A stretch of 64,000 nt of DNA from Acidobacteriota bacterium (GTDB lineage Bacteria > Acidobacteriota > UBA6911 > RPQK01 > JADFOI01), in assembly GCA_963663035.1 (NCBI GenBank), contig OY760074.1:1088001-1152000 (forward strand). The letters are read 5' to 3'. Below the pieces are notes generated by a model. That model did not search any database, was not told the DNA's origin, and worked only from the letters and a program-made list of their open reading frames with translations. The number at the start of each line of letters is the position of its first letter. The stretch's first letter is position 1. This document shows, piece after piece, positions 1 through 11,514 of this stretch. The position numbers and the translations under genes are program-made.

Positions 1-1840
1 ATCTCTTTGGGGAACAAAAATCTCGTTGTTCACTGCATCGACGGCCAGCTTATCCGGATGGGTCAACTGGGTCAGAGGACCCTGAATGATGCGGATGGGT
101 GCCTCTTCTCCATCAGCCCCTCCCCGGAAAGTGAGCAGCGCCTGGGCGAAAGGCTGCGGGACGATAATCTCATCGTGAATTTCATCATAGTTGATGGCAT
201 GCATGGTTCGACCCAAGCGAGTTGCCTGTCCCTCGATCACCCGATTTGCTTTAACTGATCCGTTCGCCATCCTGGCGAATGCCGCAATCTGCGGATGGGC
301 CACTCAATTGGGAACCAGGATCTCTTTCCGTTTGGTGTCAAATCCTACTGCACCCGGGTTGCCAATCATGAGAGAGGGTTCACCCATGGGGGCGCTGCGG
401 ATGGTGCGCAAGGGCGGCGTATCGCCTCCAGCCCCACTCGGATAAACGGTCACCGTGTGATTCCCGAAGTTGGTGACCCAAAGCTCGTTGTTCTTGCTGT
501 CCAGAAAGAGCCCGGTGATCCTGGCGGTTGGTGACCACAAAGCGACGGTTGAACCCGCCCGTATTGACACCCCCTAGAATGCGGATAGGTGCTGTATCTC
601 CATCGGCGCTGGCATCGAACTGTCGGGGATTCTTGATGCCCGTATTGACACCCCCTAGAATGCGGATAGGTGCTGTATCTCCATCGGCGCTGGCATCGAA
701 AACCAGTACGGAATCGAGCATGTCGTTGGCCACAAACAGTTCACCGTTCTCCGAGTCAACGACTATTCCAGTGGGCCAGTTCAGCTGAGTTCTGGGGCCT
801 TCGATGACACGAAGCGGCGGCGTATTCCCGCTAGCGTCCTTTGGATAGACCGTAATGGAAGGCGAGACGAACTGGCCCGAACCGGGAACAACCATATCGC
901 GTCCCAGTGGCCAATTTTCCTTTCGCGAACCGCTTCCTGAATCTGAGGGGCTGGTTCGGCGCACCGAGCCATGGTTGGCGACGAAGATCAAATTGTTTTT
1001 GGTGTCCAGTGCCATCCCGTGTGGATCTGCCAGGCCCGTCCGGTCACCCTGAAGCAAACGGATGGGGGCCTCCTGTTGTGAGGCCTGCTTGTGAAACACC
1101 ACCACTGCGTTGTCGTGCTGAACGCTCAGGAAGAGTTCCTGGGCTTCTTCGTCTACCGCTATGCCAAAGGTTCCCTGTGGAGTCGCGAGTTCCCGATCGG
1201 GGGCGACGTCTCCCTTGGCTTCACGGGAGAAAACCAGGAGGGTTCTCATGGTGTCGTTATTGACTGCATAGATGTCGCCTGTTTCCTGGTCAATGTAAAG
1301 GCCGCACTGAAACTCGATTTTTGTGTTTAATCCTGCGATAACGCGTTTGGGTTCAGTCATGGCGTTGGGAGAACTATTGGCCAGACGGTCATAGACGAGA
1401 ATCTGAAAGAGATTTTCGTCTGTCACGGCGACTTCATTCCGTTCCAAATCGACCGCCACGGAGCTGAAACCTGCATAGGGATCTCGAATCACCCGCAGGG
1501 GCCTTCGAGTTGAGGTCCCCGCTGTCCCGGCCTGCAAGGCCTCGGTCGTGACTGCCCGAGCTGAGAACTGAGTTTGCTGCCAGAGAGCTGAAACGAAGTT
1601 CGGACTGACTGAGGCTGAGACGGGGAGGCAAGCCTCCCCTCCTTGCATCTCTGGAAAAGGCTGGTAAGAAACGAGTTGAGCGTCACCGGCCAGGTGGCCT
1701 TCAGGAGCCTTCATGGCTGCAGCCAACTCACCGTGGCCAGCTGACGGCCCATAAAAACCCCATCCCGCCACGGCCCCCAGGAGAGCCGAAAAGGCGATCA
1801 CCCTGAGACTCTGAAAGGTGCTGGATTTTTGAGTCATCAT
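1..1840 (-). CDS. Exported NHL/beta-propeller repeat protein, interrupted by a 109-bp insertion (517-625) and containing an in-frame TGA (306-304); runs off the window start
   Basis: Repeated blades such as 'PTGIVVDSENGELFVAN', 'PHGMALDTKNNLIFVAN' and 'APIRLLQG', with an N-terminal hydrophobic segment. Removing 517-625 joins ORF 380..1840 to ORF 304..570 as ...GIKNP-TGLFLDSKNNELW.... After the TGA the same frame stays open for 101 codons with the same repeat type (VAHPQIAAFARMANG...APIRIIQGPLTQLTHPDKLAVDAVNNEIFVP). Confidence 0.8.
257..303 (-). promoter_or_regulatory. Candidate bacterial SECIS hairpin downstream of the in-frame UGA
   Basis: On the minus strand, UUCGCCA-GGA-UGGCGAA (279-263) is a perfect 7-bp stem whose G-starting loop begins 31 nt after the UGA. 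A second hairpin CCGCA-GAU-UGCGG lies at 294-282. Confidence 0.4.
517..625. repeat. Chimeric 109-bp insert: 42 bp of IS1380 interior plus a 63-bp local duplication
   Basis: 517-558 is the exact reverse complement of 10184-10225. 557-619 is identical to 638-700. Confidence 0.9.
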
Positions 1841-1847
1841 GAACTCC

Positions 1848-3746
1848 CTAGTTTGAGGACCCCGGTCGGCGGGCCACCAAATCCTCGCGGGTGCTGATGG
1901 TGGCGCCCTCTGGTCTCAGATTGTATTCGTTGGCGAAGTCGTTGTGCAGGAAGATGAACTTGCCTCCCATCATGGTCATCAGCGTCTGGATCTCTGAAAT
2001 CTCCTCCACCGGAATGCTCATGTAGTCACGATCCAGGATGAGTAAATCGGCGAACTTTCCGGTCTCGAGAGAGCCGAGCTGGTCCCCCTTGAGGACGTAA
2101 TTGGCCCCGTTCTGGGTGGCGATCCTCAGCGCGGTTTCCCGGTCCACTCGCTCAGGGGCTCCCCAGACCTTGCCGTCCCTGTCCTTTCGGGTGATCAAGA
2201 GCTGAATTTCGCCCCAGAAGTTGTCGGCCCCCTCCAGGGAAACGTTGATACCGGCGTCGAGCATTGTCTTGATAGGGGCCCAATAGGTATGAGCAACCTC
2301 CTCGCCAAAGGCCTCAGCCACATCTCCCAGGCCGCCCCGGCCGGGGGGAGCGCAGCTCCACATCAGTCCGAGCTTGGCCGCCCGAGCAATATCAGCGGGC
2401 TCGATCAACCGGCAGTGGTCCATGGCCCAGTCCTTGACAGCTCCCGGCCGGGCCCGGTCGATACGCTCATAGGCCGCCATCAGGCGGGAGTGGGAGTCAT
2501 CCCCGGCCACGTGAACATTGGCGGTGCGCAGGCCAGCCTGGGCAAGCTCGTTGTAAAACTCCATGAAGTAGTTGGCCTTGAGGCTGGCTCCAGTCGTGCC
2601 TCCACCGTACTCAATGTCCAGACTGCACTGGCCGCGCGGCCACCACTCGGAGGATGCCGAAAGGGCCGTCACCGAAGCACCTCCGTCTTCGCCCACCGCC
2701 TGGGAGTCTCTCTGGAGGTTGGTGCACATTCTGGAGCCCGACCCATCGACTGCCCGGGCACTTATGGAAGAGATAAAGAGAATGTCGGTACCGTCGCCCA
2801 TCTTGAAGGGCGTCAGGTCCGCACCTGGAATTCCAAAGGTGGACATCTCCCCATAGGCATATCTCAGCGGCATCTGGCCTCGGGAGTCGAGCCATTGATA
2901 GGCCCGTACCGTGGAAGTGTGCAGAGCTCCCGAAATCGTGGTGATACCCGCTGCCGCAAATTCCTCGAGAAGCTGCCTGTACACCATGGCCACGTCTTCT
3001 GGTTCGGGAGCCAGCAAAAAGTCCTCATCCTGATGGAGGATACGTACGGCCGGAGGTTCTATAACGCCCGTCGGCCGGCCACTGGAGTCAATCCAGTAAC
3101 GCCCGTAGGTTTCAACGAAATCTCCGTGCTTGGCCCACAGCGCTTCAATGCCTTTGCTGTTGAGCATCATCCCGTTCACGTACGGTATCCCTATGGTCAG
3201 AGCGATGGGGTTGTCGGGAGCGGCCTTGTCCAGTTCCCATCGGTTCAGGTCGTTAAAGACCAGCTGAGCTTGCTCAGGACCCCTCGGGTTGGTGATGAAG
3301 AAGAGCCACTGGTCTGGCGGGAAGTTAAAGGCCGCAATAATGTCCCGGATCTGCTTGACAACGTCGTCCGTGGTTTTCACCAGTCTAAAGTTCAGAGCAT
3401 ATCTCTGGAGCGCGGTGGCGGACAGCCCACGGGCATAGCTGTTGGCCCCATCCAGATGCTGCTCTTCTATATGCTCGTGCGTGTTGATCAGCCCGGGAGT
3501 CACCGTCTTCCCTTTCAAATCGATCCTGAGCGTGTCGGGGCCGGCCAGGCGGAGCACGTCGTCGTTGCTTCCCACCGCCGCGATCCGGCTGCTGCGAACT
3601 GCCACGGCTTGGGCGGAGCTGAAATTCGAATCCACGGTGAGGATTTTCCCGTTGTACAAAATCGTTTCAGGAGCCTCCTGGGCAGTCGCCAAATGGACAC
3701 TTCCGAAGACACAGAAAATCACTAGGAAAAGACTTGTTAGACGCAT
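1848..3746 (-). CDS. Exported amidohydrolase family protein (YtcJ-like / Amidohydro_3)
   Basis: Signal peptide. Motifs 'ILYNGKILTVD', 'DLKGKTVTPGLINTHEH', 'VHVAGD', 'MDHC', 'GSLETGKFADLLILDRD'. Confidence 0.88.
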   Translation of the reverse strand: MRLTSLFLVIFCVFGSVHLATAQEAPETILYNGKILTVDSNFSSAQAVAVRSSRIAAVGSNDDVLRLAGPDTLRIDLKGKTVTPGLINTHEHIEEQHLDGANSYARGLSATALQRYALNFRLVKTTDDVVKQIRDIIAAFNFPPDQWLFFITNPRGPEQAQLVFNDLNRWELDKAAPDNPIALTIGIPYVNGMMLNSKGIEALWAKHGDFVETYGRYWIDSSGRPTGVIEPPAVRILHQDEDFLLAPEPEDVAMVYRQLLEEFAAAGITTISGALHTSTVRAYQWLDSRGQMPLRYAYGEMSTFGIPGADLTPFKMGDGTDILFISSISARAVDGSGSRMCTNLQRDSQAVGEDGGASVTALSASSEWWPRGQCSLDIEYGGGTTGASLKANYFMEFYNELAQAGLRTANVHVAGDDSHSRLMAAYERIDRARPGAVKDWAMDHCRLIEPADIARAAKLGLMWSCAPPGRGGLGDVAEAFGEEVAHTYWAPIKTMLDAGINVSLEGADNFWGEIQLLITRKDRDGKVWGAPERVDRETALRIATQNGANYVLKGDQLGSLETGKFADLLILDRDYMSIPVEEISEIQTLMTMMGGKFIFLHNDFANEYNLRPEGATISTREDLVARRPGSSN

Positions 3747-9093: not shown

Positions 9094-9128
9094 GTACGCC
9101 TTTCTTTTGAGCCGCCCGTCCCTTCTAG

Positions 9129-10767
9129 CCCGGATTATTCATAAATTCTGAAGAAGGGGTCTGATCGAGGGCACAAAAAGATGCCGTACCTCTTTGATAT
9201 AAAAGGGGTTATGAAACAACTCCAAACCAAAAAGGTACGGCCCAGCGATGCATCAGTCTGCCAGATCAACTTGCCATCTCACCCTGACAGAAAAGTGGTG
9301 GCTCGATTCGATGGAGGCCGGCTCTCCTCCGATGCCGGGCTGCTGTGTCTGTACGCCCTGGATCAACAGCACGGACTGACGGCTGGCTTTGCCTCCTGCC
9401 TGAAGGACGCTCGAGATAGCCGCTACGTCCGCCACCAGATTCGCGAACTGCTCACCCAGCGCAGCTTTCAGATCGTGGCCGGCTATGAGGACTGCAACGA
9501 TGCCGACAGCTTGCGCTCGGATCCCATCTTCAAGACCGTGTGTGATCGGCTGCCGGAAAGCGATCCGGATCTGGCTTCTCAACCCACGCTGTCGCGACTG
9601 GAGAACTCGGTGGACTCGAAGGATCTCACTCGCCTGGGACAGTGGCTGCTGGAGACCTACTTGAAGCACCGCAAGAAGAGCCGGCCCGAGAAGATCATCC
9701 TGGACATCGACAGCACGGATGACGTCACGCATGGGCAGCAGGAGTTCAGCTTTTACCACGGCTATTATCGCGAGCACATGTATCATCCGCTGTTGCTATT
9801 CGATGGCGAGACGGGCGATCTGGTATGTGCGCTACTGCGGCCCGGCAACCAGGGGGCGGCCGCCCACGCGGTGGCGGTTCTCAAACGGGTGGTGGCCCGG
9901 ATGCGCCAGGTTCTGGGATCCGATGTTCCGATCGAAGTGCGAGCCGACAGTGGCTTTGCGACGCCGGCACTGTACGAGTTCTGTGAGGAGGAAAAACTGC
10001 AGTATGTGGTGGGCTTTGCCCGCAACTCCCGGCTGGCGGCCACCGTCGAGCCCTTGGTTGAGCAGGTGCAAGCAGACTATGACGACTCAGGAGAAAAGCA
10101 ACGCCAGTTCACCGAGCTCGTCTATCAGGCCGACAGTTGGGACCGGGAGCGGCGCATGGTGGCCAAGGTGGAAGTGAGCGAGCGCGGGTTCAACCGTCGC
10201 TTTGTGGTCACCAACCGCCAGGATCTCACGGCCGGGCAGCTGTATGACCACTACATCGGACGGGGCCAGTGCGAGAACTTCGTGAAAGCTTTCAAAAAAG
10301 ATCTGGCCATGGATCGCTTGAGCTGCCACCGTTTCCTGGCCAACCAGTTCCGACTCTTCATCCACGCCCTGGCCTATGTCTTAATCCTGCGCCTGCGGGA
10401 TTACCTGTGCGGGACTCCCTGGCACAACCTGGAGATTGAGACGCTCCGCCGCCGCCTGTTCAAAATCGGTGCCCGGGTTCGGGAAACTTCTCGTCGCATC
10501 TGGGTGCACCTGGCATCGTCTTATCCCGAACAAAAGCTCTTCGCATTACTGATGCACCGTCTGTGTCCCACCTGACGGTCCCCTGACTCCCTGCGCCAAC
10601 ACAGATATACAGCCCCCTGCGGGCCGAGCTGTTTCCGGAAGGGGCTCTCGCTTCATCTCTATTCGGCTCAACAAGCTTGGACGCCTTGTAATCGCACCTG
10701 AACACACTCTCAGCCCTGAACTTCCGCAGAAAATCGACACTCACCCCAAACTTATGAATAATTGCGG
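9129..10767 (+). mobile_element. IS1380-family insertion sequence, complete (1639 bp)
   Basis: Imperfect terminal IRs CCCGGATTATTCATAA and TTATGAATAATTGCGG, flanked on both sides by CTAG (9125-9128, 10768-10771). One transposase ORF. Confidence 0.9.
9211..10575 (+). CDS. IS1380-family DDE transposase (ORF is open from 9181; ATG 9211 has SD AAGGGG)
   Basis: 'FDGGRLSSDAG', 'ASQPTLSRLEN', 'LDIDSTDDVTHGQQE', 'RADSGF', 'RGQCENFVK', 'LSCHRFLANQFRL'. Confidence 0.95.
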   Translation: MKQLQTKKVRPSDASVCQINLPSHPDRKVVARFDGGRLSSDAGLLCLYALDQQHGLTAGFASCLKDARDSRYVRHQIRELLTQRSFQIVAGYEDCNDADSLRSDPIFKTVCDRLPESDPDLASQPTLSRLENSVDSKDLTRLGQWLLETYLKHRKKSRPEKIILDIDSTDDVTHGQQEFSFYHGYYREHMYHPLLLFDGETGDLVCALLRPGNQGAAAHAVAVLKRVVARMRQVLGSDVPIEVRADSGFATPALYEFCEEEKLQYVVGFARNSRLAATVEPLVEQVQADYDDSGEKQRQFTELVYQADSWDRERRMVAKVEVSERGFNRRFVVTNRQDLTAGQLYDHYIGRGQCENFVKAFKKDLAMDRLSCHRFLANQFRLFIHALAYVLILRLRDYLCGTPWHNLEIETLRRRLFKIGARVRETSRRIWVHLASSYPEQKLFALLMHRLCPT

Positions 10768-11514
10768 CTAGGAGCCCATACGGGATAAGAGCACCAACCC
10801 GGTGAGTGCCAAAACCGACAGCACGATCTTACGAAACAGTTGCTCGTTGATCCTTTTCTGGAGTCCAAGGGTCAGAAAAACCATGGGGCCCGCCAGAGCC
10901 GCAGCGGCAAAGGCCAGAAGGAAGAGACGGGGCGTATAGATTCCGACCCAGATCAGCGAACCCACTTGAATAGTGTCCACCATCACAAAAAAGATGTTAA
11001 TCAAAAAGAGAAAGGCTGCCCTGGGCAGCTGCAGCTGGTAAAAGAAGACGGTAACCACGGGAGCCGAGGTTCCCGTTGCTCCCTGCAGAGTGCCGGCCAA
11101 CAAGCCGACCACGGCCCCCCATCGGGTGGCAAAGCGATCACTCAGACGGGGCAGGAGATGAAACCAGGAAATGACCACAAAGAGCAGTACACCCAATCCC
11201 AGCCCCGCTTTTAACAGCCCCTGGTCGACACGAATAAGAATTTGAGTGCCGATGAGGACGCCGGCCATTCCTGCCACAATCATGGGAATAAAGCGGAGTG
11301 CCTGACGCCACTCGCTGCGGTAGGAATAGAGAATGGGCATGTCCGAGAGTGCGGTGGGGAGAATTGCCACGGCAATAGCAGTGGGAAGATCGTAAAGCAC
11401 CGCGAGGATGGGTGTGGCCACCACGGGCAGACCAATGCCACTAATGCCCTTGGTGGCCCCCGCCAGCAGAATAGCAAGTGCCCCAATTAGCAATCTGAAA
11501 TCGATTTGATCCAT
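10768..11514 (-). CDS. Sulfite exporter TauE/SafE family membrane protein
   Basis: Multi-TM protein with 'AGATKGISGIG' and 'GLLAGTLQGATGTSAP'. Its stop codon lies in the IS1380 target CTAG. Confidence 0.85.
   Translation of the reverse strand: MDQIDFRLLIGALAILLAGATKGISGIGLPVVATPILAVLYDLPTAIAVAILPTALSDMPILYSYRSEWRQALRFIPMIVAGMAGVLIGTQILIRVDQGLLKAGLGLGVLLFVVISWFHLLPRLSDRFATRWGAVVGLLAGTLQGATGTSAPVVTVFFYQLQLPRAAFLFLINIFFVMVDTIQVGSLIWVGIYTPRLFLLAFAAAALAGPMVFLTLGLQKRINEQLFRKIVLSVLALTGLVLLSRMGS

Follow-up and report, generated by a model that had tools for sequence, protein, structure and literature searches.

An in-frame TGA in a tandem NHL propeller gene of Acidobacteriota is probably a selenocysteine codon and points to a new selenoprotein family

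The stretch of DNA analysed here, referred to as the window, comprises 64,000 nucleotides (nt) from an Acidobacteriota bacterium (G000:C1:1088001-1152000, from a single-contig genome of 3.59 Mb). It begins inside a gene on the minus strand that encodes a protein of the NHL beta-propeller type and carries an in-frame TGA codon at window positions 304-306 (-). The question raised by this locus is whether the TGA ends one protein or is read as selenocysteine (Sec) within a larger one. The initial annotation, made from the sequence alone, had favoured a single large, exported double-propeller selenoprotein with Sec at about codon 476.

The frame upstream of the TGA reads ...TGLFLDSKNNELWVTNFGNHTVTVYP...AVGFDTKRKEILVPN, followed directly by the TGA. 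Behind it the same frame was claimed to stay open for at least 101 codons. It does so for 101 codons up to the first base of the window and for 275 codons in total in the genome, ending in ...LTYSLPEMYEDR and a stop at G000:C1:1087479-1087481, 174 codons past the window. These first 101 codons (1..303, -) form part of a C-terminal six-bladed NHL propeller, as judged from the open frame, the Pfam NHL match and a domain model of a homologue. Upstream, positions 307..516 (-) hold coding sequence in the same frame (blade 6 and the start of blade 7, placed by frame and orthologue alignment). The N-terminal part (626..1840, -) consists of the start codon (1838-1840), a membrane helix, a linker and the N-terminal NHL propeller, based on the open reading frame (ORF) 380..1840, the Pfam NHL match and the homologue model. 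This ORF (-) begins at 1840 with MMTQKSSTFQSLRVIAFSALLGAVAG... and shows propeller blades down to about 620. In the window as assembled, the N-terminal ORF and the TGA lie in different frames because of a 109-nt insertion at 517-625, which had been overlooked initially (ORF 380..1840 is outside the TGA frame). With 517-625 removed, the uninterrupted gene encodes 750 residues and the TGA is codon 476; in a 93%-identical orthologue from a genome of the same genus, 475 codons precede the TGA. The position first given for Sec is therefore correct for the uninterrupted form and incorrect for the frameshifted copy as assembled. The TGA itself was confirmed outside the assembly, since a contig of run X1 spanning 283-516 matches with 0 differences; contigs of runs X5, X6 and X10, which cover 1-516 or 1-470, show 1-2 differences. 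In RNA runs, at most 0.19 of the sampled words were present.

The reading of the TGA as Sec is carried first of all by its homologues. A search of 41 related genomes, including the window's own, with the C-terminal 345 residues (X at the TGA) returned 10 full-length matches in 5 of the 41 genomes, representing 4 genera at 43-93% identity, and every one of them contained the in-frame TGA. In all 10, the TGA occupies the column ...[IL]LVPN-U-V-[AVS]-HP-[QR]... within a single frame of roughly 670-750 codons that starts with a signal-anchor-like N-terminus. Genomes G004 and G005 gave weak partial matches only, without TGA; altogether, 6 of the 40 relatives match and 4 of these 6 have full-length TGA forms. 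Additionally, a scan that took one genome from each of 185,579 species identified 312 relatives, from which 78 loci were kept, some of these public loci being the same contigs as the related-genome matches. The motif was observed in 77 of the 78 loci and in 85 gene copies, with TGA in 74, TGC in 10 and TGT in 1, and none of the 85 copies had TAA or TAG at the Sec column. The flanks EILVPN and V-x-HPQIA are conserved in 10/10 relatives and in the 85 copies. Among the 120 best full-length homologues in a collection of 5.8 billion proteins (44-58% identity over the C-terminal half), 119 carry Cys at this column and 1 carries Trp, the latter probably a TGA read under another code. A UGA aligned with an otherwise invariant Cys, with both flanks conserved, represents the classical selenoprotein signature. 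The initial annotation had anticipated TGA or Cys, and never TAA or TAG, at VPN-x-VAHP, and this is the pattern seen, at VPN-x-V-x-HP, in the relatives, the 85 copies and the database homologues alike.

Sec and Cys appear to have interchanged at least 16 times on a quick FastTree tree of 202 rows, from which 9 rows shorter than 550 residues were left out. Such frequent switching makes the family a natural test bed for when Sec pays off. The public loci are mostly labelled Acidobacteriota (Terriglobia, Vicinamibacterales, Solibacteraceae, Sulfopaludibacter, Luteitalea), and a few carry the labels Binatia, Verrucomicrobiia, Planctomycetota, Gemmatimonadaceae or Deltaproteobacteria. One metagenome-assembled genome (MAG) contained 14 TGA copies on its contigs and another contained 9. 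Tandem arrays of 2-3 propeller paralogues on one strand were observed in L084 (three copies), L075, L095, L110 and L129; the array in L129 consists of three Cys-form copies in a row, while the other arrays are composed of TGA forms. At the DNA level, a strict 45-nt pattern of UGA plus hairpin had exact matches in at least 121 metagenome contigs. Many unrelated contigs in four metagenome runs match window positions 259-321 only, at 90-95% identity. Summed depth over this stretch rises 30- to 100-fold above the flanks, which identifies it as by far the most conserved DNA of the family.

The second line of evidence is a hairpin downstream of the TGA that resembles a selenocysteine insertion sequence (SECIS). 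The perfect stem UUCGCCA-GGA-UGGCGAA described at the outset was found at window 263-279 (-), and 31 nt separate the TGA from its loop. Folding and alignment extend the element to 261..281 (-), with a 7-bp stem (263-269/273-279), an outer C-G pair (261/281), an A.C mismatch (262/280) and the apical loop GGA at 270-272. This hairpin lies 22-42 nt after the TGA and has a minimum free energy of -8.7 kcal/mol (z -3.31), with 1 of 200 dinucleotide shuffles as stable. Between the TGA and this stem, a small conserved hairpin, CCGC-AGAUU-GCGG (282..294, -), was recognised from its pairing in 79 sequences. The bacterial SECIS consensus, as given in section 5 and the Fig. 2 legend of PMC13188914, has a loop of 3-9 nt with G in its first two positions, a stem of 4-16 bp, a distance of 16-37 nt from the UGA and a minimum free energy of at most -7.5 kcal/mol. 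Applied by hand, this model accommodates the window's hairpin in all four of its constraints (3-nt loop GGA, 7-bp stem, 31 nt, -8.7 kcal/mol).

Covariation was assessed in a gap-free alignment of the 66 nt from the TGA in 79 distinct TGA-form sequences. Unaided, RNAalifold recovered both the small hairpin at columns 14-24 and the main stem, columns 26-33 pairing with 39-46 around the loop A-GGN-U. Over both helices, the main stem being counted as nine pairs, standard pairs occupy 96.2% of 948 cells, compared with 30-56% after displacement of the 3' partners by 1-3 columns. Double changes occur in 30 cells versus 8.0 in shuffles; for pairing, for the number of double changes and for the covariation score, 0/500 shuffles match the values observed. 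The covariation is found mainly at pair 27-45 (A-U 35, G-C 15, U-A 8, C-G 4; 27 double changes), which links two third-codon positions, with single compensatory cases at pairs 16-22 and 34-38. In the small hairpin, pairs 14-24, 15-23 and 16-22 are paired in 79/79 sequences, with a compensatory change from C-G to A-U in 2 of them.

Most stem pairs are invariant, so the structural argument leans on the conservation of synonymous sites and on the Cys forms as a control. TGA forms spell the peptide F-A-R-[LM]-A as TTC GCC AGG NTG GCG, with AGG in 75/79, GCC for the first Ala in 75/79 and GCG for the second in 79/79. In the 11 Cys forms, the Arg codon is CGC or CGG (8/8 Arg). The main helix is paired in 52.5% of cases in Cys forms versus 94.9% in TGA forms, and the mean hairpin energy is -3.6 versus -10.5 kcal/mol. 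Selection at synonymous sites is thus seen only together with the TGA, as a SECIS element predicts. The hairpin suspected initially is conserved, covaries and is absent from the Cys forms.

These observations bear directly on the simplest alternative, in which the TGA is a true stop and the N- and C-terminal propeller proteins are made separately, the second through a coupled restart at the adjacent GTG. A GTG does follow the TGA directly, and both gene callers and a protein atlas keep the two halves apart. In the atlas, reached via a natural Cys homologue, the halves appear as clusters of 431-504 and 273-303 residues, mostly from Acidobacteriota; these split clusters also fit gene callers cutting the family at the TGA, which is a lead and not proof. 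However, the codon after the column encodes Val in the Cys forms too (GTG or GTC), which places its conservation at the protein level. A stop here would also split a propeller blade between its second and third strands, 119/120 full-length homologues continue through the position with Cys, no TAA or TAG occurs among the 85 copies, and the hairpin is confined to TGA forms. Given the Cys homologues, the cut blade and the TGA-only hairpin, termination with restart is excluded for practical purposes.

If the TGA is translated, the remaining question is which residue it specifies. The genome encodes the complete machinery that the initial annotation had wanted to see: selA (559 bits), selB (370 bits, full length) and selD (378 bits) all score over their curated cut-offs, and tRNA-Sec (66 bits) also exceeds its curated cut-off and is called by ARAGORN as tRNA-SeC with anticodon tca. 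TGA closes 511 of the 1091 stop-to-stop frames of at least 400 codons in the genome, where it is the commonest ordinary stop, and a genome-wide reassignment is therefore not indicated. Insertion of another residue, such as Cys by a tRNA-Sec-like tRNA-Cys, or Trp or Gly, has some precedent, as passages of PMC5389517 describe opal suppressors that are tRNA-Sec-like tRNA(Cys), along with odd tRNAs in Acidobacteria, and one database homologue carries Trp at the column. Against this stand the canonical tRNA-SeC (tca) accompanied by selA, selB and selD, the role of TGA as the commonest ordinary stop, and a SelB-type hairpin retained with TGA only; the same passages place the selC* tRNAs in other phyla (PMC5389517). 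Nothing in the data points to recoding to another residue, and we consider it highly improbable.

On these comparative grounds, the TGA at 304-306 (-) is very likely a selenocysteine codon. By analogy with the known bacterial pathway, SelB carrying Sec-tRNA(Sec), with anticodon UCA, would bind the hairpin with its GGN loop 31 nt after the UGA and, competing with release factor 2, bring Sec to the ribosome. The decoding mechanism is of the known, textbook type. Two further selenium-related loci were encountered in the analysis. The selD gene of this genome (L018, G000:C1:3111136-3112059, -) itself contains one in-frame TGA (...VDCAG-U-ASKLAPE...), and its downstream hairpin is unlike that of the propeller gene. 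In a MAG labelled Planctomycetota, selA (L-seryl-tRNA selenium transferase; L090:2329-3693, +) begins right where a TGA-form propeller gene ends.

Several observations weigh against the selenocysteine interpretation or soften its support. The support for Sec is comparative throughout. Taken in full, the 66 nt after the TGA do not exceed shuffles in stability (z -0.60), the covarying pair 27-45 is an A.C mismatch in the hairpin of the window, and double changes occur at 3/12 pairs only, most of the stem being invariant. No Rfam SECIS family was detected in window 1-700 at E values up to 10, where a chance small-RNA match was the only result. None of 250 other genomes sampled evenly from the phylum matched at E 1e-60, which we read as a patchy distribution of the family and not as evidence against the selenoprotein finding. 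Finally, the assembled copy is frameshifted upstream of the TGA and, if this is real, the strain has a pseudogene.

The last point was examined through the 109-nt insertion (517..625, no strand assigned), whose edges were set by alignment with the 93%-identical orthologue and whose composition was deduced from repeat matches. It is chimeric and made up of three parts: a 42-nt segment (517-558) that is identical to an internal part of an insertion sequence (IS) element, a perfect copy of 638-700 at 557-619, and 6 further nt. Deleting 517-625 rejoins one frame, in which ...GVNTGIKNP is followed directly by TGLFLDSKNN.... The IS element itself, of about 1647 bp with terminal inverted repeats, lies at about 9125-10771 in the window and encodes a 464-residue DDE_Tnp_1_4 transposase (ORF 9181-10575, +); 32 near-identical copies of it are present in the 3.59-Mb genome.

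It could be argued that the copy in this genome is a pseudogene inactivated by the insertion and yields no selenoprotein. The assembly as given does carry the frameshift, and the element that donated 42 nt of the insertion is abundant in the genome. However, contigs from 4 public runs belonging to 4 studies join 516 straight to 626 with identical or nearly identical flanks, and the inserted form was not found in the contigs of those 4 runs, so the insertion seems peculiar to this assembly. The remaining frame is intact and 93% identical to the orthologue, and the combination of an inner IS fragment with a local duplication, sharing 1-2 bases at the joints, resembles an error of a chimeric read or of the consensus. 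Contigs drop rare variants, so that a strain-specific allele could escape the 4-run comparison. The insertion is a private allele or else an artefact, chimeric or of the consensus; inactivation of the gene in this strain appears unlikely. The question has no bearing on the nature of the TGA.

Returning to the selenocysteine reading, we asked what kind of protein the restored gene would encode. As shown by computation, the predicted product is one 750-residue protein in which a membrane helix at the N-terminus is followed by a linker and two NHL beta-propellers of six blades each, with Sec476 in the motif PN-U-V-x-H-P. The Pfam NHL model (PF01436) matched the N-terminal part of the window protein at 38.7 bits and the C-terminal part at 31.5 bits (cut-off 20). 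A 740-residue homologue, P0002, which is 68% identical to the C-terminal part of the window protein, matched NHL at 66.9 bits, with weaker Pfam matches to Lactonase (29.9 bits) and SGL (25.9 bits). No NCBIfam model came near its cut-off, including the NF-numbered selenoprotein models. An AlphaFold2 model of the whole of P0002, built with 79 aligned sequences, reached a predicted local distance difference test (pLDDT) score of 89.2. It contains a helix at residues 8-25, a linker of low confidence that reaches to about residue 90 and, beyond it, twelve blades of four strands each by manual strand count.

In a Foldseek search, the full P0002 model retrieved generic tandem WD40/YWTD propellers only (template modelling score about 0.3), and the C-terminal domain was therefore folded alone. 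The resulting model, which represents the 68%-identical homologue and not the window's own sequence, is a six-bladed NHL propeller (pLDDT 92.5). Its best structural matches are the NHL domains of TRIM2 (7qrv_A, Z 27.1, root-mean-square deviation 2.3 over 251 residues), TRIM71 (Z 26.9) and Brat (Z 25.8), followed by peptidyl-alpha-hydroxyglycine alpha-amidating lyase (PAL; 3fw0_A, Z 25.5) and PknD (1rwi_B, Z 25.1), while lactonases, SMP-30 and paraoxonase gave Z near 20-22. A sequence search of solved structures returned weak NHL matches only (E 6e-4 and above). In this model, Sec is located in a five-residue turn between strands 2 and 3 of the first blade of the domain (strands 22-27 and 33-38; Sec at 28). 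The homologue models thus bear out both the exported double-propeller architecture and the placement of the TGA inside a blade that had been proposed for this gene.

Residue statistics over 211 rows (80 TGA forms and 131 Cys forms) revealed a conserved neighbourhood around this position. At position +3 from Sec/Cys, His is present in 80/80 TGA forms, and in the Cys forms we observed His in 92, Gln in 26, Asn in 12 and Arg in 1. R489, T490, H492, Y496, D497, D501 and E502 of the next blade are each at least 95% conserved. We tentatively propose an enzyme site outside the cytoplasm in which Sec, replaced by Cys in other members, is the reactive residue and which the His at +3 and the Arg/Thr/His/Tyr/Asp cluster of the next blade may complete. 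An enzymatic role of this kind leans on variable gene neighbourhoods and on the sequence conservation of these residues, which counts against it.

The Cys of the EFQCG motif had been put forward as a possible redox partner of Sec. Raw counts look linked, with Cys in 65/80 Sec-form rows and Ser in 102/131 Cys-form rows, but in the tree-based test about 2.3 of 13 independent tree pairs change with Sec/Cys and 10.7 are unchanged (sign test p about 0.5). Without coupling in this test, and with Ser at the position in most Cys-form rows, the proposed partnership is unsupported. Another cysteine was observed in the linker: C62 of P0002 (...GGEACLPVS... in the window, at about 1640-1655) is present in 63/80 TGA-form and 119/131 Cys-form rows, and is conserved wherever the region is present. 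C62 falls in a stretch modelled with low confidence and would make a stronger candidate for the partner of Sec than the EFQCG Cys.

In the vicinity of the propeller gene, an exported amidohydrolase of 632 residues (1848..3746, -; Pfam Amidohydro_3, E 1e-45) lies 7 nt upstream, and the same family adjoins the propeller gene in 9 further loci. On the other side, 21 nt downstream and outside the window, a 164-residue membrane-anchored protein (G000:C1:1086963-1087457, -) carries two CxxCH haem motifs; it had no Pfam match at 1e-5 and is classed as a dihaem cytochrome c by motif. Two relatives, the same-genus orthologue among them, likewise have this small cytochrome next to the gene (L030/L128, L033). 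For a wider view, the 106 nearest same-strand ORFs were collected and 34 were dropped (shorter than 150 residues, or propeller copies or fragments), leaving 72 from public loci, to which 2 of this genome were added. Among these neighbours we identified Amidohydro_3 in 10 cases (including this genome and one match just under the cut-off), TonB-type outer-membrane barrels or their CarboxypepD_reg domain in 7, UbiD in 3, SCO1/SenC in 2, selA in 1 (L090) and a sulfite-oxidase-like molybdoenzyme with cytochrome c in 1. The context is variable and leans towards the uptake and breakdown of some substrate outside the cytoplasm. The enzyme might act in nutrient breakdown or in periplasmic redox chemistry, with exported amidohydrolases and TonB-type outer-membrane proteins at its side and, in this genome, also the dihaem cytochrome c.

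Taken as a whole, the homologues, the hairpin, the Sec machinery and the models support the original proposal of a large exported double-propeller selenoprotein with Sec at the TGA. Judged from the sequences compared here, the gene almost certainly represents a new family of selenoproteins, built as NHL propellers in tandem, with a Sec-UGA and a bacterial SECIS of canonical type. Table 1 of a 2026 review (PMC13188914), presented as the most comprehensive inventory, lists 119 families and subfamilies of prokaryotic selenoproteins, and it contains neither an NHL, propeller, lactonase or YncE entry nor a PN-U-V motif. Likewise, the main texts of PMC1794560, PMC12013277, PMC9312934, PMC2398784 and PMC5029168 mention no propeller, NHL or lactonase selenoprotein, and the BSepDB supplement up to a point within Table S1 has no propeller-type entry, the BSepDB family list (Table S2) lying outside this scope. 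The propeller family therefore appears to be uncatalogued, the Haft and Tolstoy families having been compared only as cited in PMC13188914. The novelty lies in the family itself, in its size and fold class and in the extracytoplasmic site; the carriers are soil and sponge bacteria.

A broader interpretation, towards which the evidence inclines us by a modest degree, is that this is the first beta-propeller selenoprotein family, one that is large, rich in paralogues (at least 14 TGA copies in one MAG), extracytoplasmic and split by gene callers. With Sec, an obligatory His and an Arg/Thr/His/Tyr/Asp cluster on a blade instead of a thioredoxin-like CxxU, it would point to undescribed selenium-dependent chemistry, possibly a metal-selenolate or nucleophilic site working with exported amidohydrolases. 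With the same reservation, the selenoproteomes of many Acidobacteriota would be badly undercounted, because gene callers split the family in two. If this is true, the selenoproteins, until now for the most part enzymes of the thioredoxin-like or metal-cofactor kind, would gain a fold class, and split 'hypothetical NHL/lactonase' genes, numbering in the hundreds in Acidobacteriota that live in soil, in groundwater or with sponges, would be single selenoproteins. Selenium would then be more important to these abundant bacteria than current counts suggest; Table 2 of an early survey (PMC1794560) gives 3 families and 4 selenoproteins for Acidobacteria. For annotation, the split genes would be located and repaired with the help of the Cys/TGA column or of the strict 45-nt motif of UGA plus hairpin.

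The protein can finally be compared with known systems. Propellers of the Lactonase/SMP-30/YncE type (PF10282, PF08450, COG3391) share weak profile matches with P0002, and the Cys homologues go by the name 'DNA-binding beta-propeller fold protein YncE' or lactonase in their source databases; their structural Z of about 22, however, is below that of NHL domains. Membership in the YncE and 6-phosphogluconolactonase families was considered and rejected, since scores of 17.3 bits against a cut-off of 400 and 28.2 bits against 370 (NF052280, NF008258) lie far under the thresholds. The six-bladed NHL propellers (PF01436), such as TRIM2/TRIM71/Brat, PAL, the PknD sensor domain and NHLRC2, resemble it in the fold of the C-terminal domain and in the Pfam NHL matches, but here two propellers stand in tandem behind a membrane helix, and the identity to solved structures is 8-20%. 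TRIM2/TRIM71/Brat NHL, PAL, PknD and NHLRC2 are not known to be selenoproteins. The 119-family table includes none of them. With known bacterial selenoprotein genes, for example formate dehydrogenase alpha and selD, the propeller gene shares the in-frame UGA, a hairpin within the coding sequence, 16-37 nt after the UGA, whose small apical loop opens with G, the existence of Cys homologues and a full selA/selB/selC/selD set. Most known selenoprotein families have thioredoxin-like folds and UxxC or CxxU motifs (PMC13188914), whereas the propeller gene differs in its protein family and fold and in the motif PN-U-V-x-H-P, placed in the turn of a propeller blade.

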